From assembly GCA_965230895.1 (NCBI GenBank), contig OZ246394.1, positions 185,316-249,315 on the forward strand: a stretch of DNA of 64,000 nt, given 5' to 3'. This DNA comes from an uncultured Gammaproteobacteria bacterium. Its GTDB lineage: Bacteria; Patescibacteriota; Microgenomatia; Levybacterales; UBA12049. This document shows positions 2,424 to 59,007 of this stretch, piece after piece. The notes under the pieces are model-generated. The model was not told the origin of the DNA. It saw only the letters and a list, made by a program, of their open reading frames with translations, and did not search any database. Numbering within the stretch: the first letter of the stretch is position 1; every line of letters starts with the position of its first letter. The translations under genes and the position numbers were made by a program.

Positions 2424-3401
2424 ATGGCAAAACAAATCCCCTATCTTGATCTAAAATCAGAAATTTTTCAGAAAATTAAGGAAAACGGTGGTTGGGTCAA
2501 TGCCCATGCACACTTGGATCGTGCATATACAATTACTCCTGAGAAATTTAAGCAAGCCAATGCCCTTCGAGAAGAAAAATGGCAATTGAATGCCGAGCTT
2601 CGCAAAACATCTACTGTCGAACAGATCTACGATCGGATGGCCGCAGCAACAGAATTATTACTTTCCCAAGGCGTTGTAGCCACAGCATCCTTTATCGATG
2701 TTGATCCAGACGTCAAGGATAAAGCTATTAAAGCTGCACAAAAAGTTCGTGAAGAATTTAAAGGGCAAATGGAGTTTAAATTCATCAACCAATCAAGTTA
2801 TGGCATCTTTACGAAAGAAACTCGTGAATGGTATGAAGTTGGAACTGAGTTTGTTGATATTATCGGAGGGTTACTCAAGTCTGCACATCCAAAGGAAAAT
2901 GAATATCTTGATATTCTCATGGAATCTGCAAAACATAAAAAGAAGATGATCCATATCCATATTGATGAAAATAATATCCCTGAGGAAAAAGAAACTGAAA
3001 TGTTGGCGAAAAAAGTTATTGAGCATGGTTTGGAAGGTAAAGTTGTTGGAATCCATGGTATTTCCATTAATACGCATCCAAAGGAATATAGAGAAAGCGT
3101 GTATGATTTGATGGTTAAAGCAAAGATGATTATGGTTGCGTGTCCTATTTCTTGGGCAAATGCTCGCCGTAACGAAACACTCGCGCCTATCCATAACGCC
3201 GTTACTCCGCTTGATGAACTAGCTCCACGAGGAATTCCTGTAGCTGTTGGCATAGATAATCTCTATGATATCTTCATGCCATTTAACGATGGAAATATCT
3301 GGAACGATTTGCGTTTACTTATGGAAGCAAATCGATACTATGATATTGATGCAATGGTTGATGTTGCTACGACAAACGGAAGAAAAGCGTTAGGAATATA
3401 G
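2424..3401 (+). CDS. amidohydrolase-family metal-dependent hydrolase (cytosine deaminase-like)
   Basis: N-terminal NAHAHLD (HxH metal-binding) motif and a later HIHIDE motif, as in the amidohydrolase superfamily. Pyrimidine context with pyrD/pyrF. Confidence 0.55.
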   Translation: MAKQIPYLDLKSEIFQKIKENGGWVNAHAHLDRAYTITPEKFKQANALREEKWQLNAELRKTSTVEQIYDRMAAATELLLSQGVVATASFIDVDPDVKDKAIKAAQKVREEFKGQMEFKFINQSSYGIFTKETREWYEVGTEFVDIIGGLLKSAHPKENEYLDILMESAKHKKKMIHIHIDENNIPEEKETEMLAKKVIEHGLEGKVVGIHGISINTHPKEYRESVYDLMVKAKMIMVACPISWANARRNETLAPIHNAVTPLDELAPRGIPVAVGIDNLYDIFMPFNDGNIWNDLRLLMEANRYYDIDAMVDVATTNGRKALGI

Positions 3402-3409
3402 CTCGAAAG

Positions 3410-3772
3410 CTATTTACCCATAATCCAATCCGTCTCTACAATTATCCCTACCAATGTATGTCTGCGTTCTCCTAAAAATATCTTCTCAACCAGGGGTTTG
3501 TTATCTGGAAATGAGACAATTTCTACACCGCTCTCATACAGCTTAGCTGTCCATATATCTTTCTGAAAAGTATCGGTATCAGGTTCTGCGTTTACAGCTG
3601 TAGCATATGAACTCGCGTCATATCTTCGATGCGGAGATCCATGTGTATTTAAAAGAGTATTTGCAGCAGCTAATCGTTCTATTGCACGGCGTCTTCTATG
3701 AATTGCTTTTACAGGATATTCCCTTTCAGGCACTAATTCTCCCAGCCTTCCTCTAGAACATTGGTAAGGCAA
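3410..3772 (-). CDS. hypothetical small protein
   Basis: 120-aa ORF filling an otherwise empty 320-bp gap; overlaps the 3' end of the next gene by 40 nt; no motif recognised. Confidence 0.2.
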   Translation of the reverse strand: MPYQCSRGRLGELVPEREYPVKAIHRRRRAIERLAAANTLLNTHGSPHRRYDASSYATAVNAEPDTDTFQKDIWTAKLYESGVEIVSFPDNKPLVEKIFLGERRHTLVGIIVETDWIMGK

Positions 3773-4585: not shown

Positions 4586-6199
4586 CTATACTCTTGCTGC
4601 CTGAAGTTTGTCTACAAAATCCTGGGCAACGGGGACGCTCGTAATAAGATGTGTATTATGCTCAATTGCTTTTTGACGAATGATCTTTCCATCTGTTTGT
4701 GTCTTTTCCCGTTCCATAGGAATATTGATAATTAAATCGAATCGTTCTACGTTCATCAAATCTCCCAAATTAGGCTTGAGATGTGGTTCTGAAATCTTAT
4801 GAACTGCGATTGCCTCAATACCACTTGTTTTAAGGAACTTATGGGTTTTGTATGTTGCATAGATCTTGTATCCAAGCTCATGGAGTTTTTTGACAGTAGG
4901 AAGAAGTTTTACTTTATTGGAACGTTTGCCAATTGAGATAAGAACTGTTTTTTCAGAACGCTGTGCAAGTTTCATCGGAAGAGTATAGAATTCTATGAAT
5001 CCTGCAGAAGCATTCTGGTTTAAACCATCAGAGACCATAAATGTCGCAAGCTTTTCATCAAAAATGGTATTTGGAGTTTCCAATGCCATTACCTGTGCAA
5101 CACCTTTAAATAATTGGACTGTCACTTTCCCTGTGACTTTCTGATTCACATTGTCGATGAATGCGTTAAGATCGTTCATTAATGGTTCATACCAAAGTGC
5201 TCCATAGCAAAGATATGCCCACTTTTGATCGACAGTTGCTTTGAATTCATTTTCGGTTCTTGTGCAGACATAATGCTCAAGTTTCTCATGCGCAGTGATA
5301 ATGATTTCTGCAGCAGGAGCTTCGAAAACATCACGGATCTTCATGCCGATGACACGATCTTCGATATGGATGTTTGTGCCGACACCGTGCTTTGCTCCAA
5401 TTGTGTTCAATGACATGATGAGATCAGAAAGCTTTTTTTGTTCCCCATTGAGAGAAACAGGAATACCTTTCACAAATTCGAGTGTAACGAGTTCAGGTTT
5501 GTCAGGAGCTTTCTCTGGGAGGTTATTAATTACCAATATTTTTTCGAGTGGTGGGATTTTCGCAGGATCTTCAATTTCTCCGCCTTCTCCGGAAGAACCC
5601 CACATATTTTCATCATACGAATATGGTTTCTCCATGGTATGGGTGACTGGGATCCCTTGTTGCTTTGCATATTCCAATTCTTCTAAACGTCCCATACTCC
5701 ATTCTCGGACTGGAGCAATGATCTTAATATCAGGATTCAATGCAAGTGCAGAACCTTCGATTCTGATTTGATCATTTCCTCGACCTGTGCATCCGTGAGC
5801 AATTGCGTCAGCACCTTCAATAGCTGCGATCTTTACTGCCCATTTTGCAAGAAGTGGTCGTCCGATTGCTGTGGCAAGTCGGTATCTGTGTTGATAGTTT
5901 GCATTTGCCTTAATTCCCTTTGCGATATATTCGTTTGCAAATTCATCTTTTGCATCGATAACATAGGTTTTTACTGCTCCTAGTTTTTCAGCTTTTTTCT
6001 TGATGGCATCAAGATCATCGACGACTTGTCCGATATCGATTGTGAGGGCGATAACTTCTGCTTTGTATTCATCTTGGATCCATTTGAGCATTACTGAGGT
6101 ATCAAGTCCACCGGAATAAAGGAGTACCACTTTCTTCACTTCACCTTTTTTACCTTCGTATGAAGCAACTTTGTGGTATGTAGATTTGTTTTTATCCAT
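4586..6199 (-). CDS. argG: argininosuccinate synthase fused to a C-terminal MGS-like domain
   Basis: N-terminal VVLLYSGGLDTS PP-loop and an ArgG-like body of ~400 aa. An extra ~130 aa C-terminal region (VLISIGKRSNK...FDLIINIP) resembles methylglyoxal-synthase-like regulatory domains. Confidence 0.8.
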   Translation of the reverse strand: MDKNKSTYHKVASYEGKKGEVKKVVLLYSGGLDTSVMLKWIQDEYKAEVIALTIDIGQVVDDLDAIKKKAEKLGAVKTYVIDAKDEFANEYIAKGIKANANYQHRYRLATAIGRPLLAKWAVKIAAIEGADAIAHGCTGRGNDQIRIEGSALALNPDIKIIAPVREWSMGRLEELEYAKQQGIPVTHTMEKPYSYDENMWGSSGEGGEIEDPAKIPPLEKILVINNLPEKAPDKPELVTLEFVKGIPVSLNGEQKKLSDLIMSLNTIGAKHGVGTNIHIEDRVIGMKIRDVFEAPAAEIIITAHEKLEHYVCTRTENEFKATVDQKWAYLCYGALWYEPLMNDLNAFIDNVNQKVTGKVTVQLFKGVAQVMALETPNTIFDEKLATFMVSDGLNQNASAGFIEFYTLPMKLAQRSEKTVLISIGKRSNKVKLLPTVKKLHELGYKIYATYKTHKFLKTSGIEAIAVHKISEPHLKPNLGDLMNVERFDLIINIPMEREKTQTDGKIIRQKAIEHNTHLITSVPVAQDFVDKLQAARV

Positions 6200-6225
6200 T
6201 TATGTTTAAAATTGAAATTTTAAAT

Positions 6226-6266
6226 AAAAAATGAAATATATTTTGTAACTTTTTATTTCATTTTTT
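6226..6266. promoter_or_regulatory. 13-bp perfect inverted repeat in the divergent argG / amidinotransferase promoter region
   Basis: AAAAAATGAAATA-N15-TATTTCATTTTTT; a third half-site AAAAAATGAATA lies at ~6290. Confidence 0.4.
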
Positions 6267-6375
6267 GCTTAATTTAACTCATTCTATTAAAAAATGAATA
6301 TTGTGTCAACAGTGAATTTGTATGAGATTCCACATCACTCTGTTCGTCGCCAAGACGTTGTGTTACACTTCAGCT

Positions 6376-7299: not shown

Positions 7300-8265
7300 T
7301 TACCATCTCTTTCTGAAATTGATTTGCTCAGTCAGCCCTACCCATTCCATTGGAGAACCTTGTAAGACAGCTTTGAACGTCCCAGCTGAAGTCCGAATCC
7401 CTTCTACTGTGTGTTCTCTTGTGGTCAGCTTTGTCGTGCCAGTAATTAATTGTAAATCATCTCGAGATCCAAGTCGTATTGCTTCATGAACGAATGCAGA
7501 GATATGGCTGGTATCATATTCTGCCGCACTACTTGTACGAAGAGGAAATCTTGCTTTGCCACAATGATCCCCCACATCACATGCATTGCAGAGCGCATCT
7601 TTGGCTGCGGGTCGTAATTCTACCGGATAATCCTCCGGCAAATCGGCGAACTCTTGAAAGTTTGCTTCTAACTTCTTTCGATACAACTTATGGCTTTGTG
7701 GTGTCTGTCCGACAGTATCTGCATAGTACTGTGCGGCGATTGGGTGGTACTCGGTTGGATTTGATTGAATTTTTGATTGCGTTTGCGTCATCCCTTCTGT
7801 GATTCTTCTGGCTCGTGATTCTGGTGAAACATATCCGACATCTTCAAAATAATGAAGATGATGTCCACGGATTACATACGGAGGTCTTGTATCACTGCCT
7901 TGTTCGTATTCAGATAGTTTCATACTTGGACTCAAATCGATTCCACCTGTAAATAAAACCGTTTCAGCGACTGTGATAATTTGTGAATCTATCCTTTCTC
8001 CAACAAGAGTACTGCCATCTTTACTTGCAGGCTGTCGTATCATTGCATCAAGTACTTGAAAGATGCGGCTCGTCTTTCCTCGGTCAAATTGGACAGGTTG
8101 AGGGACAGATAGACCTCTTTGTTCGACCCAAGTTGGTCCACCTCGTTGAGCCGCTAGAGTACGAGCGTTATAAATTGGTTGTGGATTAATCTCTTTTCTT
8201 GGTTGGGCAACATGTTCTATTGCACGATACATATCATGCATGGAGTACGATTCAATTTTTGACAT
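7300..8265 (-). CDS. hypothetical protein with CNACDVGDHCGK cysteine motif
   Basis: Long uninterrupted 321-aa ORF; composition rich in Q/T/P; no family recognised. Confidence 0.35.
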   Translation of the reverse strand: MSKIESYSMHDMYRAIEHVAQPRKEINPQPIYNARTLAAQRGGPTWVEQRGLSVPQPVQFDRGKTSRIFQVLDAMIRQPASKDGSTLVGERIDSQIITVAETVLFTGGIDLSPSMKLSEYEQGSDTRPPYVIRGHHLHYFEDVGYVSPESRARRITEGMTQTQSKIQSNPTEYHPIAAQYYADTVGQTPQSHKLYRKKLEANFQEFADLPEDYPVELRPAAKDALCNACDVGDHCGKARFPLRTSSAAEYDTSHISAFVHEAIRLGSRDDLQLITGTTKLTTREHTVEGIRTSAGTFKAVLQGSPMEWVGLTEQINFRKRW

Positions 8266-10310: not shown

Positions 10311-11201
10311 TTATGCTTCTGTTTGTTTTTCAGTAGCTGTAACGAGTGTATCCATAAGCATGGCAACATTTACGGGCCCTACTCCTTTGGGAGTTGGCGT
10401 ATAAAATGACGCAATATCCGCTATCTCCGCCTCAACATAATCTCCCTGAAGTTTCTTCTCTTCTGTTTGACTCATTCCTACACCAATTAATATAACGTCC
10501 CTTTTTAGCATAGCCGCTTTGAGTGCTCCTGGTTTCCCAACAGCAGATATTACAACATCAGCGTGCTTCAAAATCTCGTCTGGTGCAGTTGTTTTGCTAT
10601 CTATAATTTGAGGGTTCAGTTTTAGTTTGCGTAAATAGGTAATGATTGGTTTACCGCCTGTTGATCCTTTGCCTATTATGACGATGTTTTGTTCGGCAAG
10701 CCAGGTTATAAATTCTTTATCATGATTGTTGTTTCCTTTAGTTGGGGATTCTGAAACAGGTTCAGGATGATACTTTGCATATATATACTCGAGGATTTTC
10801 TCGACAGCCAAAGGAAGTGGTAGTGTATAGGGAGAATCTGGATGAAAACCATCAATATCCTTTTGTGGTTCAGTAAGGTGATCAAGCTTGTCTTCGTCAA
10901 TATGTTTTGGCAGTGGTCGTTGGATGAGAATTCCATGCACAAAGGGATCTGCATTTAACAAAGAAATTTTTTCTTCAAGCTCCTTTGAAGTCACATCCTC
11001 TCCAAAGCGCATCACTGTTACTTTCGCCCCTATTGCTTCCGCCTTTTTCTCTTTTTGCTTTATATATGCTGCAGAAGACGGATTGTTTCCAACGAAAATA
11101 ACCACGAGGTGCGGCATGATATTTCTTTTTTGTAATTCCCCTACTCTGTGCCGGAGGTCTTCAAAGATATGATCAACTATTTCTGTACTATCAATTTTCA
11201 T
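10311..11201 (-). CDS. folD: bifunctional methylenetetrahydrofolate dehydrogenase/cyclohydrolase
   Basis: FolD-like sequence (NPSSAAYIKQKEKKAEAIG... IGKGSTGGKPI...) with a ~45-aa insertion before the GKGS nucleotide-binding motif; start taken at MKIDSTEIV. Confidence 0.8.
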   Translation of the reverse strand: MKIDSTEIVDHIFEDLRHRVGELQKRNIMPHLVVIFVGNNPSSAAYIKQKEKKAEAIGAKVTVMRFGEDVTSKELEEKISLLNADPFVHGILIQRPLPKHIDEDKLDHLTEPQKDIDGFHPDSPYTLPLPLAVEKILEYIYAKYHPEPVSESPTKGNNNHDKEFITWLAEQNIVIIGKGSTGGKPIITYLRKLKLNPQIIDSKTTAPDEILKHADVVISAVGKPGALKAAMLKRDVILIGVGMSQTEEKKLQGDYVEAEIADIASFYTPTPKGVGPVNVAMLMDTLVTATEKQTEA

Positions 11202-43130: not shown

Positions 43131-43640
43131 ATGCAAAAAGGATTTACACTTGTTGAAATGCTCATTGTTCTCGGTATTGTGGGAATTGTAGCAACCATGC
43201 TTATCGTCGGGATCAACCCTCTTGATCAGATACGTAAATCAAGTGATGCTGATCGGAAGTCAGATATCGCGCAACTTCAAAAGGCTTTAGAATTATATTA
43301 TCAAGATAACGGCAGCTATCCTCCATCATCTGCAGATTACAAACTCTACATTAACAGTTCAACTCTTGCCTGGGGAACTGGTACATGGTTGCCGTACATG
43401 AGTAAACTGCCGAAAGATCCAAGTCCACAACGATCATATGTTTATTACGTCCCTGCATCATCAAATGGACAAACGTATTATATCTATAGTAGTTTAGAGA
43501 GAGGATCGAAAGATCCACAAGTATGTAATGCCGGGAATGCTTGTGTCAGTATCACTGCAGGCGTTGCTGGTTTCCCGACTGCAACTGCTTGTGGCACAAC
43601 GTGTAATTACGGAGTTTCCAGTCCAAATGTTTCACCATGA
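43131..43640 (+). CDS. type IV pilin
   Basis: Class III signal MQKGFTLVEMLIVLGIVGIV. Confidence 0.8.
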   Translation: MQKGFTLVEMLIVLGIVGIVATMLIVGINPLDQIRKSSDADRKSDIAQLQKALELYYQDNGSYPPSSADYKLYINSSTLAWGTGTWLPYMSKLPKDPSPQRSYVYYVPASSNGQTYYIYSSLERGSKDPQVCNAGNACVSITAGVAGFPTATACGTTCNYGVSSPNVSP

Positions 43641-44080
43641 GAAAGTTATTTAAGCAATCAAAAGGATTTACATTGATCGAATTATTAATTGTGCTGGCAA
43701 TTATCGGTACGTTAACTTCTATTATCATGGTTAATTTCCTGAGCGCTCGTGAACGTGGCCGCGATGGTGAACGAAAGTCAGAACTAAGACAATTACAAAC
43801 TGCTTTTGAATTATATCGAGCAGATCAAGGTACGTATCCACCAGCACCACTTCCAACCTGTGATACTCCGCTCACCAATGGTGGCACAACCTACATCCAG
43901 AAAATCCCATGCGATCCAACGAATTCAGGCCAACATGTCTACACATATACAACGACTGGAACAACATACAATCTTTTCTCATGTCTCGAGAATGAAAAAG
44001 ATGCGCAAAAAGACAAAGTAAATAATGCGACCTATTGTTCCGGTACAACAAATTGGTCCTTCACTCTCACCAACCCCTAA
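43637..44080 (+). CDS. type IV pilin
   Basis: MRKLFKQSKGFTLIELLIVLAIIG. Confidence 0.8.
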   Translation: MRKLFKQSKGFTLIELLIVLAIIGTLTSIIMVNFLSARERGRDGERKSELRQLQTAFELYRADQGTYPPAPLPTCDTPLTNGGTTYIQKIPCDPTNSGQHVYTYTTTGTTYNLFSCLENEKDAQKDKVNNATYCSGTTNWSFTLTNP

Positions 44081-45150: not shown

Positions 45151-45665
45151 GAAAGGTAGCATTACAAAAAGGATATACATTAGTTGAGCTTTTGGTTGTT
45201 ATAACGATTCTAAGTGTTATTGGTGTTATTGTGGTTACCGTTATCACTATTAGTCTCCGTGGTTCGCAGAAGTCAGATAAACTCGAAATCGTCAGACAAG
45301 GTGGCGATACAGCGATGTCGCAAATGGTACGGAGCATCCGATATGCAAAGTCTTTGGACTCCCCCGCTTCATGTGTCCCCGCGACCAATGTCTCTTCCAT
45401 CACTATTACATCATTACAAGATAATGGACAGACAACCTATAGCTGCGCATCAAATGCCATTGCTTCAAATAGTGCACCGCTTGTCGATACAAATGCAGTG
45501 AATGTGAATGCCTGTTCATTTACCTGTTCGCAACAACGAGTGAGTGATCCTCCAACCATTCAAATACAGTTTTCTTTGAGCGCGAAGAATGAAAGTAGCT
45601 TCACAGAGACCAAGGCTGTGATTCCTTTTCAGACCAGTGTAACGTTGCGTAATTACGCTCGATAA
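45147..45665 (+). CDS. type IV pilin-like (minor pilin)
   Basis: MRKVALQKGYTLVELLVVITILS; ATGA overlap with the previous gene. Confidence 0.7.
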   Translation: MRKVALQKGYTLVELLVVITILSVIGVIVVTVITISLRGSQKSDKLEIVRQGGDTAMSQMVRSIRYAKSLDSPASCVPATNVSSITITSLQDNGQTTYSCASNAIASNSAPLVDTNAVNVNACSFTCSQQRVSDPPTIQIQFSLSAKNESSFTETKAVIPFQTSVTLRNYAR

Positions 45666-48102: not shown

Positions 48103-48846
48103 ATGAGTAAAGAAACGTGGATAGGCAAAAAAGGCCTACGATATTGGTATTACAAATATAGAGATTCAGAGTATTTTTCTCTTGGCTTTACTGCGGTTGC
48201 GGTCGTCGGATGTTTGATTCTTCTTTTTTATGTCATTATCCCTCAGGTGACGAGTTGGTTCTCTATCCGTGATGAAATTATCGCTACTCGTGAACGAATC
48301 TCTGTCTTGCAGGATAATATCAATTTCATGAACAATCTCGACAAAGGCCAGATGAATACACAGATTCAAACAGCTGCCGGTGCACTCCCTCCTGAAAAAG
48401 ATTTCGGGTCAATGCTGGATGTACTTTCTGGAGCAGCAGTATCTTCCGGAGTCTCTCTCAATGATTTCTCTTTCCAGGTCGGTAATGTCGCTTCTTCATC
48501 AGGTATGGTTCTGGATGAGCGTCATAAAAATCTCGCTTCAGTGAAGATAACTGTAGTTGCTTTAGGAAGTGTCGATAAGGTAAAGAAGTTCATTAGCACG
48601 GTCCAGAATAGTGTGCCGATCTCTGAAGTCGTGAACATCGATGGAAGTGGACAGACGATTTCGATAAGTATTCAATTTTATCAAAAGAATTTGAAGGATG
48701 TGAAGATCCAGGAAGATCAGCCGCTTAAGCCGCTTTCTGCTGAGAAGTTCGCATTGTTGCAGCAATTGAATACATGGAAGAAGAGTCAAACAAATGTGAA
48801 TTTTGAAAGTTCTGATGCAAGCGGAGGTGCGCTTCCACTCTTTTAA
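48103..48846 (+). CDS. pilO: PilO-like pilus assembly protein
   Basis: Single TM helix plus a periplasmic domain, in pilMNO order. Confidence 0.5.
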   Translation: MSKETWIGKKGLRYWYYKYRDSEYFSLGFTAVAVVGCLILLFYVIIPQVTSWFSIRDEIIATRERISVLQDNINFMNNLDKGQMNTQIQTAAGALPPEKDFGSMLDVLSGAAVSSGVSLNDFSFQVGNVASSSGMVLDERHKNLASVKITVVALGSVDKVKKFISTVQNSVPISEVVNIDGSGQTISISIQFYQKNLKDVKIQEDQPLKPLSAEKFALLQQLNTWKKSQTNVNFESSDASGGALPLF

Positions 48847-48858
48847 CCCCTACCTCTT

Positions 48859-48903
48859 GTCATCCTAAGTACCCGGATGGGTAGAATTTAGTTCAGGATC
48901 ACC
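48859..48903. repeat. member A of the ATCCTGAA...TTCAGGAT hairpin-repeat family (expanded loop)
   Basis: GTCATCCTAAGT...AGTTCAGGATCAC; compare 52830..52850 and 54173..54193. Confidence 0.4.
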
Positions 48904-48926
48904 AATAAAAGCGTGTTTCTTTTCTT

Positions 48927-49078
48927 GTACTTTTGACCGCAAAAGTACCAAAACTCTGTCCGCTCATGAAGTCGGGCTAAAATTACTCCGTTCACTTCCG
49001 GGGGAAACACTCCCCCTCCGGCAATTCGCCGGTGGTCCCCCTGGACGTTCTCTTCGTAATTTCTTTACGCCCTTTGTT
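48927..49078. ncRNA. candidate structured RNA / structured repeat element, copy 1
   Basis: ~150 nt, ~75% identical to 57982..58130. Three hairpins are preserved by compensatory changes (GTACTTTTG-ACCG-CAAAAGTAC vs CTACTTTG-GCCG-CAAAGTAG; CCGGC-AATTC-GCCGG vs TCAGC-AATTC-GCTGG; CCGGGGG-loop-CCCCC). Confidence 0.45.
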
Positions 49079-49117
49079 CAACGCTCCCAAAATTGTCAAA
49101 TGTGTTTTATATTGTAC

Positions 49118-49651
49118 TCAAATTGCCGAACTTTTTTGTTTTAAATATTCTAAAAGTTCTTTTTCATAACCCATTATTGACCAATTTTTATCCTGGGTTT
49201 TAATAATTACTTCATATAAACTTTCAATTGAAACCCATTTCACTTCTTCAACTTCATCCTTTTCTAATGTTAATTCGGCAACTTTCCCATTCCAAAATAA
49301 ATAATGTACTCCTTGAAACTCTTTTCCTTGTAAGTCTTTGAAAATAGTAAACTGATGTATATCTTCTTCAAGCGCCTGAATGCCTAACTCTTCTTCTAAT
49401 TCATTTCTGGCATTTGTGATGTAGGCTTCATCAGGTGCCATGTGTCCTCCAAAGAAGGGTTCCCATTTCCCAGGATTCATGTCTTTTAGTAGAGATCTTT
49501 TTTGACAGAGTATTTCACTGTGAGAATTAATAATCCAAATATGTGCAGTTCTATGCCAATATCCATCTCTATGCACTTCATGTCTTGGCTTAGGTTCTGT
49601 TGGGATATTGTTCTCATCAACTACGAACAAGAGTTCACTACGATTAATCAT
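49118..49651 (-). CDS. NUDIX hydrolase
   Basis: Nudix box GGHMAPDEAYITNARNELEEELG. Confidence 0.7.
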   Translation of the reverse strand: MINRSELLFVVDENNIPTEPKPRHEVHRDGYWHRTAHIWIINSHSEILCQKRSLLKDMNPGKWEPFFGGHMAPDEAYITNARNELEEELGIQALEEDIHQFTIFKDLQGKEFQGVHYLFWNGKVAELTLEKDEVEEVKWVSIESLYEVIIKTQDKNWSIMGYEKELLEYLKQKSSAI

Positions 49652-49679
49652 TAGCTGAGTATATCAGAAAGAGGTATAT

Positions 49680-50378
49680 TTATTTTTCTTCGAGGAGGTC
49701 GGGGCGGTGCTTTTTGGTTTTTTCTAGGGCTTTTTCGTGGCGCCAGTCAGCTATCTTTTTGTGATCTCCCTGCAGGAGAACTTCTGGGACGTCTTGTCCG
49801 TCGTATGATCGTGGCTTTGTGTAGTGAGGGTATTCGAGGAGTGCACCATCTGGTTGCGAAAATGATTCATCATCGGTTGCACCGTCTGTGATGACCCCAG
49901 GGATAAGTCTGATGATACTGTCTGCGATAAGCATGGCTGGGATTTCTCCTCCGGTCAGGACGAAGTCTCCGATTGAAACTTCCCCATCGACATATTTCAT
50001 GATTCGATCATCAAATCCTTCATAATGTCCGCAGATGATGATGAGATGATCAAGCTGAGAATATGCCTTGGCATGAGTTTGCTTATACGTCTCGCCCCCT
50101 GCCGCTGTCAAAAGAATTTTCCGTTTTACTTCCCCTTCGCCATTGAAATTTGCCTTCGCCTTCTCAATCGCAGCATGCACGACATCGACTTTAAGCACCA
50201 TCCCAATTCCCCCACCATATGGTGTATCATCAACCATCTGATGCGACCCAATCCCGAAGTCCCTGATATCCAAAAGCTCAATCTCCACAAGCCCCTTCTC
50301 CTGCCCCCGCTTGACAATAGATTCAGTAAAAGGCCCAACGAACATTTCAGGAAACAAAGTAAGAATGCTTATTTTCAT
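49680..50378 (-). CDS. trmD: tRNA (guanine37-N1)-methyltransferase
   Basis: MKISILTLFPEMF... and GGGIGMVL SPOUT-knot motifs. Confidence 0.9.
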   Translation of the reverse strand: MKISILTLFPEMFVGPFTESIVKRGQEKGLVEIELLDIRDFGIGSHQMVDDTPYGGGIGMVLKVDVVHAAIEKAKANFNGEGEVKRKILLTAAGGETYKQTHAKAYSQLDHLIIICGHYEGFDDRIMKYVDGEVSIGDFVLTGGEIPAMLIADSIIRLIPGVITDGATDDESFSQPDGALLEYPHYTKPRSYDGQDVPEVLLQGDHKKIADWRHEKALEKTKKHRPDLLEEK

Positions 50379-50465: not shown

Positions 50466-52805
50466 ATGTCAGTTATAATACATTTAATAATGATTAAAAA
50501 GATTTTAAAAATTCGTAATGTGGGACTTTTGAGAGATGCCATATCTAAAACTGGTATTGGACTTACTCCGTTTACCATGATCTATGCAGAGAATGGCATT
50601 GGTAAATCAACGTTAGCAATGATAATTCGTTCTATTGGTAACAAAGAAAGTACAAATATCATCTCTAAAAAAACGATTGATTCTGAGCATGAGCCATACA
50701 TAGAAATACTAACTCAAGATGGCAAAACTATTCATACTCATAAATTTGAGAATAGTCAATGGAGTAATCAAAATAAAACCCCTGTTGAAGTTTTTGACTC
50801 TGAATTTGTAGAGAAGAATATTTATTCAGGAAGCATTATATCCGCCGAACACAGACAATCTTTACTTGAATTTGCCTTAGGTGACCAAACAGTTGAACAT
50901 AAACACAAAGTAGATGAATTAACCAGACAATATGATGAAGAAAGCAAAAACCTTACAACATTAGCAAGAGCAATTAAAGGTTTATCTCAGCAGTTGTCTT
51001 TAGAATTATTTATTGCTCTCCCAGAGGTTCCTAAAGATTATGAGGATAAAGTAAAAGAATTAGAGTCGAGTATAACCGCATTACGCAATATTAATCAAAT
51101 AAATGGCCGGCCAAAGCTATCAATAATTGACAAAGTTAATATTGATCTAACAAGTATAGAAAACTTACTCTCTAAACAACTAAAAGATGTCGAGTCTTCA
51201 GCTGAAGAAATCGTTACTAAACATTTTAAAAATCATGATAGAAAAATTGAAGAATGGGTAAATGAAGGTCAGATTTTATTGAAGGATTCAACTTGTCCAT
51301 TCTGTGGTAGCAATACTGAGAATCTTGAAATAATCTCTGCATATAAAACCTATTTTAATCAAAACTATAACGCTTTAAAAAAATCTATTAAAGATACTCA
51401 AGATGATGTAAACAAAGTACTCTCGGAAGGCTCTTTAAACTCTGTTACTAGTTCTATATCGATGAATGATGAACGAATCAAGAGCTGGGAAAGTGAATTA
51501 GGCTTTGAGTTAATTCCTTTTGATAGTGCAAAGTTTAAAGTGATTTTTAGAGAACTTAGATCACTCATACAGATTCAATTATTGAGTAAAGGTAATAAAC
51601 CACTTGAAGCTATAGATTTAGAGTCTAGCGACTGTAAAGTTAGTGAAAAATGGAACGAAATAAATAAGCTGATAACTGAATATAACGATTCTATTTCTAC
51701 TTATAATGAAGCTATTGATGCTTATAAAAGTAAACTAAAACCAAATGATATATCTAAGTTTCAAATAGACCTTAGTCGATTAAGGTTAACTAAGGTCAAA
51801 AACTCAAAAGATGTTTTGACTTTAATTTCACAATACTCGATTTCAAAGCAAAAGGTTGATGCTCTAGTTCAGTTGAAGAAAGAATTAAGAGCCGAAATAG
51901 ATAAAGAAATGGAAAGTACTTTAAGTATTTATCAATCAGAGATTAATAATACATTGAAATCTCTTAATGCGAATTTTTCGATAGAAAAACTAAAACACAC
52001 TTATCAAGGTACAGGTGAACCTAGATCTGAATATATACTTAAGTTAAGAAATTATGAGGTATCTTTAGTCACAAGAGATCCTAAATACCCATCATTCTCA
52101 AGTACTCTTAGCGAAGCGGACAAAAGAACATTGGCATTAGCTTTTTTTGCTGCAAGATTAAAACAAGATAAAAAGTTATCAAGTAAGATAATTGTTTTTG
52201 ATGATCCTATGTCCAGCCTAGATAGAAATCGACGTGACAAAACTTTAAGACTAATATGTGAACTGTCTGCAACAGCTATTCAAACTATTTTACTTTCTCA
52301 CGACGCGTATTTCTTAAGAGATGTTAAAAATCATGCAGAAAGAATAAAATTGCATACTGGCATGATTCACCTTTACGAAATTCGACGAGGGCTACAAGAT
52401 TATTCTGTACTTGAAAATTGTGATTTAGAGGGACTTTGTGCTTCTCCTTATTACAGACATCATGCTAACGTAAGTAAATTTGTTCAAGGTGATAGATCCG
52501 TACGCATTGAATCTGTTGCACAATCTATTCGGCCATTACTCGAAGGTTATTATCATAGACGCTTCCCTGGATTAATCTCTAAACAAATGATGTTTGGAAA
52601 TATAATTAAAATTATTTCTGAATCTACACCTCCTAGTCCTTTAGTTCATCTGCATGCAAACATAGAATCTCTGTCTGAAGTAAATGATTATGTAACTCAA
52701 TTTCATCACAATGATGGTGAATCAAATGAAACAATCGTATATAATGAAACAGAAATATTAGGTTATGCAAAAACTGCAATAGAACTAATTGAGAAACATG
52801 GATAG
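50466..52805 (+). CDS. RloC/PrrC-like AAA_13 (ABC-type) ATPase with coiled-coil and CxxC zinc-hook; candidate anticodon-nuclease-type defence protein
   Basis: N-terminus IKKILKIRNVGLL...FTMIYAENGIGKSTLA (PrrC/RloC-type head + Walker A), a central K/E-rich coiled coil containing CPFCGS, Walker B / D-loop IIVFDDPMSSLD, H-loop LLSHD, and a ~190-aa C-terminal domain. Much lower GC than flanks. An alternative start lies at 50490. Confidence 0.55.
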   Translation: MSVIIHLIMIKKILKIRNVGLLRDAISKTGIGLTPFTMIYAENGIGKSTLAMIIRSIGNKESTNIISKKTIDSEHEPYIEILTQDGKTIHTHKFENSQWSNQNKTPVEVFDSEFVEKNIYSGSIISAEHRQSLLEFALGDQTVEHKHKVDELTRQYDEESKNLTTLARAIKGLSQQLSLELFIALPEVPKDYEDKVKELESSITALRNINQINGRPKLSIIDKVNIDLTSIENLLSKQLKDVESSAEEIVTKHFKNHDRKIEEWVNEGQILLKDSTCPFCGSNTENLEIISAYKTYFNQNYNALKKSIKDTQDDVNKVLSEGSLNSVTSSISMNDERIKSWESELGFELIPFDSAKFKVIFRELRSLIQIQLLSKGNKPLEAIDLESSDCKVSEKWNEINKLITEYNDSISTYNEAIDAYKSKLKPNDISKFQIDLSRLRLTKVKNSKDVLTLISQYSISKQKVDALVQLKKELRAEIDKEMESTLSIYQSEINNTLKSLNANFSIEKLKHTYQGTGEPRSEYILKLRNYEVSLVTRDPKYPSFSSTLSEADKRTLALAFFAARLKQDKKLSSKIIVFDDPMSSLDRNRRDKTLRLICELSATAIQTILLSHDAYFLRDVKNHAERIKLHTGMIHLYEIRRGLQDYSVLENCDLEGLCASPYYRHHANVSKFVQGDRSVRIESVAQSIRPLLEGYYHRRFPGLISKQMMFGNIIKIISESTPPSPLVHLHANIESLSEVNDYVTQFHHNDGESNETIVYNETEILGYAKTAIELIEKHG

Positions 52806-52829
52806 TAGACTTAAAAGTTAATTTTATGG

Positions 52830-52850
52830 ATCCTGAAACGAGTTCAGGAT
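52830..52850. repeat. member B of the hairpin-repeat family (ATCCTGAA-acgag-TTCAGGAT)
   Basis: Perfect 8-bp stem, 25 nt after the RloC-like stop, between convergent genes. Confidence 0.5.
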
Positions 52851-52861
52851 GACATATGGAT

Positions 52862-54146: not shown

Positions 54147-54172
54147 CCCCAATTAAAAGCTGTTAGTATGGG

Positions 54173-54193
54173 ATCCTGAATCGAGTTCAGGAT
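54173..54193. repeat. member C of the hairpin-repeat family (ATCCTGAA-tcgag-TTCAGGAT)
   Basis: Between the nusB stop and the rnc start. Confidence 0.5.
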
Positions 54194-54204
54194 GACACAC
54201 TCTT

Positions 54205-55914: not shown

Positions 55915-57954
55915 TTAATCAGGTGAAATAGTTTCATCGAAGGTATCTTGAAGCTTCTCTTGTAGAGTCGAATAGTCTGACAAATGTGGGAAAACCTCAT
56001 CAGCAGCATGTTTTGCTTTTTGGATTAGTACAGCATCGGAAAATGATGCAGCTTTCAGTTTTGGAACACCATGCTGAGCAGTCCCATAGAGATTTCCTGC
56101 GCCACGAAGTTTTAAGTCCAATTCCGAAAGTTCTGCTCCGGAATAAATCGTTTCCATAGCTTTGAGTCTGAGGCTTGTTTGGTCACTTTTGCTTTCAGTG
56201 AAGAGAAGACAATAGGATTGCTTATCTCCTCGACCGACACGACCTCTCAACTGGTGCAATTGCGCCAGTCCAAACCGTTCTGAAGCTTCAATCATGATGA
56301 CTGTAGCATTTGGGATATCGATACCGACTTCAACAACTGGTGTCGCAACGAGGATGTCATATTTCTTTTCTCGGAAATCATTGAGGACTGCTTCTTTTTC
56401 TTTCGCTTTCAACTTCCCGTGCAACAAAGCCAATCGAAGATCAGGGTAGACCTCTTTGCTCAAGCGTTCGTACTCTTGTGCAACTGCTTTGACTGTCGTC
56501 ATTGATTCAGAGGGCTCGATGAATGGGCACACGATAAAGACTTGAGAATTGGTTTCCTCAACCTGTTTCCTGATCCAATCATATGCGCCATCTCTTTTCT
56601 CAGGCGGTACAAGCCATGTCTTTACTCTTTTGCGTCCGTGAGGCATTTCATTCAAGTATGATAAATCCAAATCTCCATACATTGTAAGCGCAACAGTTCG
56701 AGGAATTGGAGTTGCGGTCATCGTCAAAAGATGGGGGTTATCTCCTTTTTCCCTGATTAATCCTCGTTGCGCTACACCAAACCGTTGCTGTTCGTCGATG
56801 CAGACAAGCCCAAGCTTGTTGAATGTAATCTTCTCGGAAAGCACTGCATGGGTTCCGACAAGTACATCAAGATTTACATCATCTCGAATTGTTTTCTTGC
56901 TTCCAGTAGCGAGTTCCACCGTAACACCAAGTGGTTCAAGCAAGCGTTTGATTCCTTCATAATGTTGTGTCGCAAGGATTTCTGTCGGTGCCATGAGGAC
57001 AGATTGATATCCATTGAGATACGCTGCGTACATACTGATCGCTGCGACGATTGTCTTTCCACTTCCTACATCTCCTTGCAGAAGTCTGTTCATCGGTTTG
57101 TCTTTCTGCATATCATCAAAGATGTTATTGATAGCAATTTGTTGCGCTTTGGTCAAAGTAAATGGCAGTGTGCCGATGCAATTGGCGATTTCTTTTTCGA
57201 ACTTTGTAATTTCCATCGGCAATCCTTTTTGCTTGTCTTTCCAATCTGATCGACGCTTATTACTCTTTAACTGCATGAAGAAAAGCTCATCAAACGCCAA
57301 ACGTTCTCGTGCTTTTTCTGCAGATTCAAGACTTTTCGGATAATGGATCTCTTGAATTGCTTCCGGAAATGGCAAAAAACCATATTTCTTCACAAGATCT
57401 TCTGGCATATATTCTTTGATGAGATCTTTGTGCTCAGTCAACAGACTATGGATTTGTCGCCTGAGCCACTTGGATGTAACGCCCTGAGTCTCTGGATAAA
57501 CCGGAACCAATCGACCAGTGTGAATCCCATTTCCGTCATATGAAAGTACTTCATATTGTGGTGCCTGGATGGTGAGCTTGTTGCTTCGTCCAAATGTATT
57601 AACTCTTCCCGAAACTGAAAGAAGCGCATTTGGCAGAATTGCTTTGGTCAGGAATGGCTGATTAAACCACGTCAATTCAATTGTCCCTGTGCCATCCGCG
57701 ATGAGCGCCTTTTGCATGTTCTTAATTCTTGAACCGCGCATGTAATTGGTTTTCATCTCAAGCACTTGTCCTTGGATTGTTACTGTTTCTCCGAGTCGAA
57801 CATCTGCAATTTTGGAAACAACGGAATAATCTTCGTAGCGGTTTGGTAGATGTAAAAGGAAATCCATATAGGTATGAATTTCAAGTTTTTCGAGCCTTGA
57901 AGCATACATTTTGAGGGAACGATTTCCAGAAGTGATTGGAGCATCGAGTTTCAT
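55915..57954 (-). CDS. recG: ATP-dependent DNA helicase RecG
   Basis: Wedge domain followed by SF2 helicase motifs (GDVGSGKT, DEQQRFG, TATPIPRT). Confidence 0.9.
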   Translation of the reverse strand: MKLDAPITSGNRSLKMYASRLEKLEIHTYMDFLLHLPNRYEDYSVVSKIADVRLGETVTIQGQVLEMKTNYMRGSRIKNMQKALIADGTGTIELTWFNQPFLTKAILPNALLSVSGRVNTFGRSNKLTIQAPQYEVLSYDGNGIHTGRLVPVYPETQGVTSKWLRRQIHSLLTEHKDLIKEYMPEDLVKKYGFLPFPEAIQEIHYPKSLESAEKARERLAFDELFFMQLKSNKRRSDWKDKQKGLPMEITKFEKEIANCIGTLPFTLTKAQQIAINNIFDDMQKDKPMNRLLQGDVGSGKTIVAAISMYAAYLNGYQSVLMAPTEILATQHYEGIKRLLEPLGVTVELATGSKKTIRDDVNLDVLVGTHAVLSEKITFNKLGLVCIDEQQRFGVAQRGLIREKGDNPHLLTMTATPIPRTVALTMYGDLDLSYLNEMPHGRKRVKTWLVPPEKRDGAYDWIRKQVEETNSQVFIVCPFIEPSESMTTVKAVAQEYERLSKEVYPDLRLALLHGKLKAKEKEAVLNDFREKKYDILVATPVVEVGIDIPNATVIMIEASERFGLAQLHQLRGRVGRGDKQSYCLLFTESKSDQTSLRLKAMETIYSGAELSELDLKLRGAGNLYGTAQHGVPKLKAASFSDAVLIQKAKHAADEVFPHLSDYSTLQEKLQDTFDETISPD

Positions 57955-57981
57955 ACTTCCAGATTATACACCTCTTTACTT

Positions 57982-58130
57982 CTACTTTGGCCGCAAAGTA
58001 GCAAACTCTTTTGCAAATGATAGTCGGGTTAAAATTACTGCGTTCTCTTACCGGGGGACTGTCCACCCCCTTCAGCAATTCGCTGGATTCCCCCTGGACG
58101 TTCACTCCGTAATTTCTTAACACTCTTTGT
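57982..58130. ncRNA. candidate structured RNA / structured repeat element, copy 2
   Basis: See copy 1 (48927..49078); lies in the gap between the Ltp-like gene end and the recG start. Confidence 0.45.
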
Positions 58131-58392
58131 ATCAATTGCAAAATAGGAGTGAATGTAATATTGTCGATTCTTTAATAGTAGTTTCTCACCGACTGTAGGA
58201 AGTATCTAAGAGGTTTTATAGAAGGGCGAGGTATGGGAGGAATGATGTGATGATAAGGGCAAGTGCTGCCACGATGACGATCACTTTCCAAAAGACTTTA
58301 TTTTTATCAAACATTTCCATAGGTTTATTATAAATGATTTTTATTTTTCAATAAAGGGGTGAGCTTCCTATCATGTAGCTCTTTCGTGTAGG

Positions 58393-59007
58393 TTACAAAC
58401 CAACAGCGTTAGCTCCATACTCCGCTTGTTCTTGTGTAAACTTTTCAAACTTCAATTGCTCAATTAAACTACCACGCGAAAATGCTGACATATCCATATA
58501 TGATTTAGCTTTTTTAGCTGCTTGCTCATTCCAGTTACCACCAGAGTTATCTGCACCGTATACCGCATCGTCGTGAGAAAATTGTTCATATTCTAGCTGT
58601 GCGACCAGACCATCGTGGGAAAAAGCAGTGTATGCTAGGTAAGACTTAGCTTTTTTAACTGCATTTTTCTGACTTACAGTTTCATTTGAAGCAGGAGCTG
58701 ACTGTTTGGTTTGAGCTTGTGTAGGTGCAGAGGTTGTTTTAACGGGAAGCTCTGTCGTTGCTGCTTGAGCCTGAGTTGGCTGTTGAGTTCCAACTTCATT
58801 ATTTGGTTGAGCCGTTGTAGTTGGTGCGTTTTTAGAACTGTTAAGATTACTTGCGAATAATATAAGAAGAATTGCTGTAATAATCCATTTTGTTGGCTTA
58901 CTCCAAGTAGTAAACTTCCACATCAAAACTAACCCAACAGGGAAAAAGAGAATAAGCAATGCGATAATCCATCCTGTTTTCTTATACCATTTCTTTTTTG
59001 TTTCCAT
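58393..59007 (-). CDS. Ltp-family (host cell-surface-exposed lipoprotein-like) protein with N-terminal TM anchor, two Ltp repeats
   Basis: Two copies of AKSYLxxxAFSxxGLxxQLxxExF(S/T)xxxAxYGA; a T/Q/A-rich linker. Confidence 0.55.
   Translation of the reverse strand: METKKKWYKKTGWIIALLILFFPVGLVLMWKFTTWSKPTKWIITAILLILFASNLNSSKNAPTTTAQPNNEVGTQQPTQAQAATTELPVKTTSAPTQAQTKQSAPASNETVSQKNAVKKAKSYLAYTAFSHDGLVAQLEYEQFSHDDAVYGADNSGGNWNEQAAKKAKSYMDMSAFSRGSLIEQLKFEKFTQEQAEYGANAVGL

Follow-up and report, generated by a model that had tools for sequence, protein, structure and literature searches.

A candidate family of non-coding, structure-constrained intergenic elements in Levybacteria-type genomes

The window analyzed here is a stretch of 64,000 nucleotides (nt) from contig OZ246394.1 (positions 185,316 to 249,315, forward strand; assembly GCA_965230895.1) of an uncultured bacterium that GTDB places in the Levybacterales, and it contains two related intergenic segments, copy 1 and copy 2, which a preliminary description made from the sequence alone had singled out as a candidate structured RNA. 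Together with a third, diverged copy in another uncultured genome, our results give good support to the conclusion that these segments form a small family of undescribed, non-coding, structure-constrained intergenic elements in Levybacteria-type genomes of the candidate phyla radiation (CPR), and it is likewise well supported that selection has kept their fold while the primary sequences became very different. Counting three members, the family is a well-supported candidate, short of a discovery.

Each element spans ~165-200 nt and consists of a hairpin with a 9-bp stem (S1) and the sequence CAAAAC, followed by an irregular hairpin of ~140 nt that is built from an outer helix and the helices P0, P1, and P2 and carries in its apex one GGGGG run, two CCCCC runs, and a small hairpin (S3). 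In the best local alignment, positions 48918-49081 match positions 57973-58135 with 133 identical bases among the 159 aligned (84%); the homology reported in the preliminary description (48927-49078 and 57982-58130, ~150 nt) therefore stands, and its figure of ~75% identity was slightly low. One-base indels offset the two copies throughout, and in a looser alignment weaker similarity runs on to ~49118 and ~58167. A hidden Markov model (HMM) built from the pair and searched with nhmmer recovered these two sites alone in the window (E = 1e-60 and 4e-58). The block said to be strictly conserved is the 14-mer CCCCCTGGACGTTC, which is exact in both copies and has only these two occurrences in the whole window. 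The stems were also quoted correctly: S1 reads GTACTTTTG-ACCG-CAAAAGTAC in copy 1 (48927-48948) and CTACTTTG-GCCG-CAAAGTAG in copy 2 (57982-58001), S3 reads CCGGC-AATTC-GCCGG (49018-49032) and TCAGC-AATTC-GCTGG (58072-58086), and GGGGG and CCCCC enclose differing loops in the two copies. Folding of the pair with RNAalifold was better than 500 of 500 column shuffles on the + strand (z = -6.2). The same element is found, identical, inside contigs of several Logan assemblies of the same organism.

The claim that the copies are non-coding holds as well, because no open reading frame (ORF) of at least 12 codons is common to the three copies on either strand; on the same grounds, we rejected a type I toxin-antitoxin system of the Sib/Ibs kind, in which a conserved small hydrophobic ORF lies opposite an antisense RNA. 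A small protein gene was also rejected. A pseudogene fragment of a tRNA, tmRNA, or rRNA was rejected too, as was the template/variable pair of a diversity-generating retroelement, given that the mismatches are of all kinds rather than confined to adenines and are accompanied by indels, that both copies are intergenic, and that no reverse transcriptase is encoded among the adjoining genes.

The third copy (L044:8884-9048) lies between prs and recR on a contig of another uncultured genome (L044) that was retrieved for an unrelated reason, namely that it carries a homolog, 66% identical, of the Ltp-family gene found beside copy 2. It was detected by the two-copy HMM with E = 1.1e-9 and has a score of 203.6 bits with the covariance model R1. 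Its core is 52-57% identical to those of the window copies and has the same architecture. S1 reads GTTCTTTTG-CAGT-CAAAAGAAC and is followed by CAAAAAC, GGGGG-ACTGTCCA-CCCCC is identical to copy 2, and S3 and the second TCCCCCTG are present. The remaining helices have been rewritten, with complementarity kept: P2 is ACAATTC/GAATTGT in place of CACTTCC/GGACGTT in copy 1, P1 is GTTTTTC/GAAAAAC in place of AAATTAC/GTAATTT, and P0 is AGAAGAAT/ATTCTTCT in place of GGGC/GCCC; the internal loop is mostly base-paired. Short tandem repeats of the type GATTT(C/T)GAA(T/G)TT just upstream of recR (L044:9225-9290) give a weak, spurious match to a CRISPR repeat in Rfam.

The structural alignment of the three copies was made by hand, and every row was checked against its source sequence. 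It comprises 42 pairs, in which 112 of 117 cells are paired (95.7%), and 14 of the pairs, spread over six helices, are altered on both sides. In control alignments with the 3' partners slid by 1-3 columns, pairing was 38-57% with 1-3 doubly changed pairs, and shuffling of partners among the sequences gave a mean of 5.3 doubly changed pairs, with none of 2,000 shuffles reaching 14; selection on the fold is therefore well supported. RNAalifold scored the three copies better than all 300 column shuffles on both strands (z = -11.8 on the + strand and -12.6 on the - strand). As a check that is independent of the hand alignment, we counted doubly changed pairs in A8, an alignment produced by the model in which S1 and a portion of P2 are still misaligned. 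It contains 9, compared with 3.3 +/- 1.5 after shuffling (9 was attained once in 500 shuffles) and 2-5 when the partners were slid. The compensatory pattern proposed at the outset is thus borne out and strengthened by L044, whereas RNA as the selected molecule does not follow from it, because both strands fold equally.

In copy 1, S1 (48927-48948, + strand, as are all coordinates in this paragraph unless noted) has a 9-bp stem and a 4-nt loop and is followed by CAAAAC. Between copy 1 and copy 2, the terminal G:C pair of S1 becomes C:G and one T:A pair is lost from both arms, and in L044 an A:T pair has become T:A. The copy 1 linker (48949-48973) provides the 5' strand of the outer helix (GC...TGAA, 48962-48970), whose partner in the minimum-free-energy fold is TTCA..GC in the tail (49077-49084). 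Linker identity between copy 1 and copy 2 is only 54%, yet the linker is complementary to the tail in all three copies. The sequence of this outer helix, as seen in single-sequence folds, differs in each copy (TGAA/TTCA in copy 1; TTTTGCAA/TTGCAAAA and TGATA/TATCA in copy 2; TGTGAGC/GCTCACA in L044), and because it joins linker and tail, everything after S1 forms one irregular hairpin of ~140 nt. The long-hairpin core of copy 1 (48974-49072) contains P0 (GGGC/GCCC), P1 (AAATTAC/GTAATTT), an internal loop (TCCGTT/CTCTTC), and P2 (CACTTCC-GGGGGA/TCCCCC-T-GGACGTT). Its apex (49000-49041) contains the invariant runs GGGGG (49000-49004), CCCCC(a) (49012-49016), and CCCCC(b) (49037-49041), as well as S3 (49018-49032). 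The tail (49073-49118) begins with TTTGTT after the closing stem, and weaker similarity (AATGTGTTTTATATTGTAC) extends as far as the stop codon of the NUDIX gene (49118-49120). In copy 2, S1 (57982-58001) lies 28 nt from the recG start codon and adjoins the recG TATAAT box (57967-57962, - strand). It is followed by the linker (58002-58025), in which TTTTGCAA (58009-58016) pairs with the tail at 58136-58143 and TGATA (58018-58022) with 58130-58134, and by the core (58026-58125) with P0 (GGGT/ACTC), P1 (AAATTAC/GTAATTT), the internal loop, and P2 with GGGGG at 58053-58057. The copy 2 apex comprises CCCCC(a) (58066-58070), S3 (58072-58086), and CCCCC(b) (58090-58094), and P0 and S3 of this copy contain G.U pairs on the + strand. 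The tail (58126-58167) starts with TTTGTA and contains the 3' strand of the outer helix and then GAATGTAATATTGTCGA; its motif TGTAATATT is also present in L044. A T bulge after CCCCC(b) and an asymmetric loop (1-2 nt/6 nt) between P0 and P1 are kept in all three copies.

The one GGGGG run and the two CCCCC runs of the apex are invariant in the three copies, whereas every other helix is rewritten. Folding calculations offer the G run two partners, one or the other C run, and in every copy the energies of the two conformers differ by 0.8-2.5 kcal/mol: pairing forced with the nearer or the farther C run gives -47.4 and -49.9 kcal/mol in copy 1, -47.5 and -46.7 kcal/mol in copy 2, and -64.3 and -65.7 kcal/mol in L044. 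G5/C5/C5 would be expected to be invariant if the two alternative pairings constrain each other. CCUCC, the core of the anti-Shine-Dalgarno sequence, occurs in the apex of copies 1 and 3, and the unpaired C run of the + strand would read CCCCCUCC in two copies and thus contain this core.

Copy 1 is flanked on one side by the 3' end of the gene (48103-48846, + strand) that closes a pilM-containing operon and on the other by the stop of a NUDIX gene (49118-49651, - strand), that is, by convergent gene ends as first described. The neighbors given for copy 2 are also correct, namely recG (55915-57954, - strand) and the Ltp-family gene (58393-59007, - strand), with the correction that a conserved 34-codon mini-ORF (58322-58218, - strand) intervenes between copy 2 and the Ltp gene. 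RecG homologs assign the host, whose contig is 1.61 Mb long, to Candidatus Levybacteria (Patescibacteria, CPR). For comparison, we used the sister genome L007, whose RecG is 94% identical, and the genomes L010 and L012 (79%). The interval from tyrS through the mini-ORF to recG contains no trace of the element in any of these three genomes, and at the site of copy 1 trmD and the pil gene are 2 nt apart in L007 and L012, with neither the NUDIX gene nor the element between them. Both window copies were gained after the split from the sister lineage. The closest relatives lack the element at the orthologous sites, and the family has thus reached intergenic places that it did not occupy before. The window copies are separated from each other by K ~0.18, and at four-fold sites of recG 54.5% of positions differ from L007 (K ~0.97). 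Since the genes between the two copies are core genes and syntenic in relatives, we rejected the possibility that the copies are attL/attR sites or long terminal repeats of a 9-kb island.

Copy 1 is contained in an inserted block of 833 bp, in which the element is accompanied by a promoter-like TATACT, the NUDIX gene with its low GC content, and a short hairpin that has GATGACA at its end. The slot of copy 2 is occupied in the P0011 contig of a relative by a gene for 316 aa and a LemA gene. The closest homologs of the NUDIX gene elsewhere have downstream spacers of 32-68 nt without the element, and the element is also absent from the loci of a second Ltp homolog (P0273). A full covariance-model search with filters off found no further copies in the window, and none was found in 8.5 kb of extra flank or in ~150 kb of related loci, so that the copy number is two in the ~74 kb of this genome that were examined and one in 11 kb of the L044 genome.

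Several other features of these loci were noted. The mini-ORF beside copy 2 (58218-58322, - strand) has the sequence MEMFDKNKVFWKVIVIVAALALIITSFLPYLALL, apparently a small membrane peptide, and is not in the list of 60-aa ORFs; it is also found between tyrS and recG in L007, L010, and L012, and a gene for 35 aa is present in the P0011 contig. The Ltp gene is absent from L007, L010, and L012. Ltp homologs edge a conserved prophage-like block with a GP3_package small terminase and an HNH_3 endonuclease (L044:1768-7760 and L048:5212-11784), and this block with Ltp at its edge occupies different chromosomal insertion places in different genomes. The short hairpin next to copy 1 (48858-48905, - strand) belongs to a family of the form GGATCCTGAA-loop-TTCAGGATGACA that always ends in GATGACA and is unrelated in sequence to the element. 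Other members are at 52828-52854 and 54171-54197 (both + strand), with a weaker one at 10746-10788, and in relatives they are found at L007:9950-9990 and upstream of recG in L010 and L012; they stand at gene ends and in intergenic spacers. They have the look of a repeat of the REP or terminator type that is characteristic of these Levybacteria.

The strand on which the element acts is indicated by few observations. Consensus energies are equal on both strands, and the + strand is favored only by two informative wobble pairs, both of which are G.U on that strand; single-sequence z scores are better on the + strand (-3.9 and -1.5 compared with -2.5 and -0.9). The closing stem is followed by TTTGTT, TTTGTA, and TTTAAA in the three copies, and on the + strand copies 1 and 3 closely follow the 3' end of a gene that has the same orientation. 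A scan for intrinsic terminators, which are short G+C-rich hairpins with a U tract directly behind them, found none inside any copy, the only such signal being the short TTT that the + strand has after the closing stem. The idea that the tail contains a conserved promoter on the - strand was rejected because this promoter is not conserved in L044. Among the neighboring genes, recG (TATAAT; 57952-57970, - strand) and the NUDIX gene (TATACT; 49649-49680, - strand) have their -10 boxes no more than 6-8 nt upstream of the start codon, a short distance that suggests the presence of leaderless or near-leaderless mRNAs in this organism.

Searches against known families and sequence collections returned no relative of the element. 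None of the 4,227 models of Rfam 15, which include 6S, signal recognition particle (SRP) RNA, tmRNA, RNase P, riboswitches, RsaE, and omega-RNA/HEARO, matched anywhere in the window at gathering thresholds, and relaxing the threshold to E <= 10 gave matches at chance level only (at most 17.5 bits on copies 1 and 2 and at most 21.4 bits on L044). ARAGORN found no tRNA or tmRNA in the window. The preliminary description, which had matched the copies to none of tmRNA, SRP RNA, RNase P RNA, 6S RNA, or a known riboswitch and had proposed an Rfam comparison of both, is in agreement with these results, as no family was matched by either copy. Among GTDB genomes, the exact pattern CCCCCTGGACGTTCNNNNCGTAAT gave two chance matches in GC-rich coding DNA (Planctomycetota and Steroidobacteraceae). 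In JGI metagenomes, GTCGGGNTAAAATTACTNCGTTC had no match and TCCCCCTGGACGTTCNCTNCG had 18 matches that were confined to the pattern itself; these two scans failed because both patterns were drawn from regions whose sequence changes from one genome to another (P1, P2, and the internal loop). BLASTN against phage and plasmid collections gave no match, and in the literature we found no non-coding RNA (ncRNA) or repeat family described for CPR bacteria. In IMG/VR, five of six patterns had chance matches only, and the sixth, derived from S1, matched CTTTTG-N4-CAAAAG hairpins heading unrelated repeats, in which nhmmer found no homology beyond the hairpin; we treat this likeness to S1 as coincidental.

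The IMG/VR repeats are described here in their own right. The phage contig IMGVR_UViG_3300029860_000340, which encodes capsid, portal, and terminase, contains four copies of an intergenic repeat of 230-450 nt (L056:1233-1461 and 3295-3523; L060:2647-3146 and 7335-7896), each headed by one or two CTTTTG-N4-CAAAAG hairpins and the tRNA T-arm-like GGGGGTTTCGATTCCCCC. Two of these copies form inverted repeats of 229 nt around a 1.8-kb segment encoding a DUF3102 protein. In IMGVR_UViG_3300029885_000325 (L059:2291-3301 and 5415-6333), a reverse-transcriptase gene is accompanied by a pair of 271-nt repeats that are 93% identical, each followed by GTACTTTTG-N4-CAAAAGTAC, a stem that is identical to S1 of copy 1 and was judged coincidental; the gene content and repeats of this locus are probably those of a diversity-generating retroelement with a downstream hairpin.

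In its general properties, the element resembles the enterobacterial ERIC/IRU (127 bp), the BOX, RUP, and SPRITE repeats of Streptococcus pneumoniae, and the Correia repeats of Neisseria, which are likewise 100-200 nt long, non-coding, and intergenic and form a long imperfect hairpin. As in those families, a site is filled in one genome and empty in a close relative, and copies stand at gene boundaries where they are probably co-transcribed. It differs from them in having no sequence similarity to any of them, a much lower copy number (two in ~74 kb), no terminal inverted repeats at its true ends, no duplication of TA or another target, an extra 5' hairpin outside the palindrome, an invariant G5/C5/C5 apex with two competing pairings, and helices that are rewritten between genomes rather than conserved in sequence. 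[quoted passage not shown] Both window sites differ between genomes in the presence or absence of the element, but only two copies were found in ~74 kb of this genome and one in 11 kb of another. However, the complementary arms (outer helix, P0, and P1) are internal rather than terminal, S1 and the T-rich flank at the left end have no counterpart at the right, no transposase is encoded among the genes adjoining the copies, and no target-site duplication is visible by eye in the flanks of the three copies, where fuzzy boundaries could let one of 2-3 bp escape. Repetitive extragenic palindromic (REP) sequences and BIMEs, which are GC-rich palindromes of 20-40 nt associated with RAYT and present in high copy, differ from the element in length (165-200 nt) and in its low copy number. 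According to the preliminary description, a recent duplication of the MITE or REP type would speak against a structured RNA; gain at new sites agrees with part of that picture, but the additional copy covaries and the hallmarks of MITEs are absent.

Two other classes offer points of likeness. C-rich small RNAs (sRNAs) such as RsaE/RoxS and the LhrC siblings are ~100-170 nt long and multicopy and pair through C-rich motifs with Shine-Dalgarno sequences. The element resembles them in its size, its copies per genome, its CCCCCU and CCUCC motifs, and its hairpins at the 5' and 3' ends; it differs in lacking an Rfam match, a conserved promoter, and a canonical terminator, in that one of its C runs is normally base-paired, and in that its positions are not syntenic. 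In attC sites, structure is conserved and sequence is not. Like these sites and ssoA origins, the element preserves the shape of its hairpin but little of its sequence. Its spacer is unpaired, one base is extra-helical, and the apex varies; one copy directly follows an inserted accessory ORF. Unlike attC, it lacks the RYYYAAC/GTTRRRY core, its basal helices reading AAATTAC/GTAATTT and GTTTTTC/GAAAAAC; it forms no array and has no integrase close by, it is longer than a typical attC, and one copy follows a core gene.

The best mechanistic reading of these data, to which we assign a probability of about 0.45, is that the element is a structured intergenic repeat of the ERIC/BOX kind and exerts its effect within transcripts. 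Such an element would be copied into gene-boundary and variable intergenic spots, as ERIC, BOX, and Correia repeats are, and be co-transcribed with a neighboring gene; it would most probably act at the RNA level, as a long hairpin that ends or protects transcripts or as a target of RNase III, and on the + strand its apex could alternately hide or expose the C-rich, anti-Shine-Dalgarno-like CCCCCUCC. Transcripts of MITE-like repeats typically fold to stable stem-loops and can be terminators or regulators (PMC10969869; see also PMC3184786). A number of observations weigh against this reading. Only three members in two genomes are available, so that the statistics rest on few independent events, and the structural alignment was made by hand, with a weaker control on the tool-made A8. 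Pattern scans of GTDB, JGI, and IMG/VR gave no further member, the patterns lying in genome-variable parts. The true ends carry no terminal inverted repeats, since the palindrome does not include S1, and neither a target-site duplication nor a nearby transposase was found. Copy 2 is antisense to both of its neighbors, so that orientation to genes is inconsistent, the strand is undecided by the consensus folds (z = -11.8 and -12.6 on the + and - strands), and no promoter or canonical terminator is common to the copies. Finally, copy 1 may have arrived passively within its 833-bp promoter-NUDIX-element block.

The same data can be read in other ways. The main rival, possible but doubtful, is that the copies are free-standing genes for trans-acting sibling sRNAs transcribed from the + strand; each RNA would carry a 5' hairpin and a long 3' hairpin with UUU at its end and would pair through CCCCCU(CC) motifs with G-rich ribosome-binding sites of target mRNAs in the manner of RsaE/RoxS or LhrC. 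The strong covariation combined with invariant C runs able to be single-stranded would suit this explanation, as would the two copies in one genome, the CCUCC in the apex of copies 1 and 3, the TTT after the closing stem in all three copies, the G.U wobbles and better single-sequence z scores on the + strand, and promoter-like sites 40-47 nt upstream of S1 in copy 1 (TTGTCA-19-TAGAAT) and L044 (TTCATA-16-TATAAT). However, the repeated unit contains no conserved promoter, and copy 2, where the start would fall inside antisense recG, shows no evident one; the terminator scan finds nothing at the element, and neither RsaE nor another sRNA of Rfam matches it. Absence from the sister genome at both sites and lack of synteny between genomes would, moreover, require a copying mechanism that sRNA genes normally lack. 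At the other extreme, a divergent housekeeping RNA missed by Rfam, such as a 6S-like rod with a central bubble, is very improbable: the total of ~165 nt, the rod shape, and, in the window copies, an internal loop of ~6 x 6 nt with G:C-rich pairs on its flanks recall 6S RNA, and no 6S or other Rfam family was found in the 64-kb window, but the element does not match any 6S model even at E <= 10, its internal loop closes in L044, it has an extra 5' hairpin outside the rod, and the closest relatives lack it at the corresponding sites, with L044 carrying it at a different one.

Selection might also act on folded single-stranded DNA, as in attC, plasmid single-strand origins, or the ends of IS200/IS605, with a recombinase or replication protein recognizing the shape of a site that marks the insertion of accessory genes. 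This fits the conservation of structure without sequence, the equal folding of both strands, the arrangement of basal helix, unpaired spacer, and second helix with an extra-helical T after CCCCC(b) and a variable apex, the position of copy 1 at the stop of a low-GC NUDIX gene that is inserted relative to L007 and L012, and the differing accessory genes that relatives hold in the slot of copy 2. We nevertheless regard it as improbable, given basal helices without the attC core motifs RYYYAAC/GTTRRRY, copies that are 9 kb apart with housekeeping genes between them and no cassette array, no integrase or transposase beside either copy, an L044 copy that follows the core gene prs, and close NUDIX homologs elsewhere that lack the element. 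The paired changes need not reflect function at all if the element is a recently duplicated palindrome shaped by template switching or arm-to-arm correction, since template switching creates and maintains hairpins and introduces paired changes in a single event (bioRxiv 10.1101/2021.04.15.439925; PMC8794818). S1 and S3 are perfect hairpins with short loops and ideal substrates for it, flips of a pair (A:T to T:A and G:C to C:G) account for many of the changes, and the window copies are young by their K of ~0.18 against ~0.97 to the sister genome. Pure homogenization would be expected to remove irregularities, but all three copies retain the T bulge, the asymmetric loop, and the competing C runs, G5/C5/C5 is invariant while all other helices are rewritten, covariation reaches pairs 90-130 nt apart (P0 and the outer helix), and the family has persisted with its fold intact to ~55% core identity between genomes; a functionless palindrome accordingly has a low probability in our view. 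The element probably does something, because 165-200 nt are costly in a small genome, its shape is selected, and it has been placed at new sites beside accessory genes. A bolder proposal, which we consider unlikely, is a bistable regulatory RNA class peculiar to CPR bacteria, in which GGGGG would toggle between the two CCCCC runs and expose or hide the anti-Shine-Dalgarno-like CCCCCUCC in response to a ligand, a protein, or temperature; or, equally novel, the element could be a shape-recognized single-stranded DNA site used by an undescribed recombination system that slots accessory genes into compact genomes.

Elsewhere in the window, two further observations concern genes away from the copies. 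A gene for a 779-aa AAA_13-family ATPase (50466-52805, + strand) has a GC content of 0.27-0.32 compared with ~0.42 in its neighbors, and its slot in L007 holds three different genes including one for a DUF8370 protein; to judge from composition and gene content, this islet is probably variable, horizontally acquired, and defense-like. Three paralogous 48-nt stretches on the + strand (43136-43183, 43660-43707, and 45167-45214), with 65-71% identity to one another, seem to code for the conserved methylation/hydrophobic segment at the N terminus of the type IV pilin-like genes located upstream of pilM.

CPR bacteria have small genomes and very short intergenic regions, and few ncRNAs or repeat families have been described in them. 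New candidate RNA motifs are common, but the structural evidence for this one is unusually clean for three sequences, and its host phylum is poorly explored. The S1 hairpin, CGGGGGAC..CCACCCCCT, and TCCCCCTG are conserved blocks that, together with model R1, can be used to collect the family. In genomes of this kind, the element may serve as a regulator, as a module at transcript ends, or as a handle for genome rearrangement.

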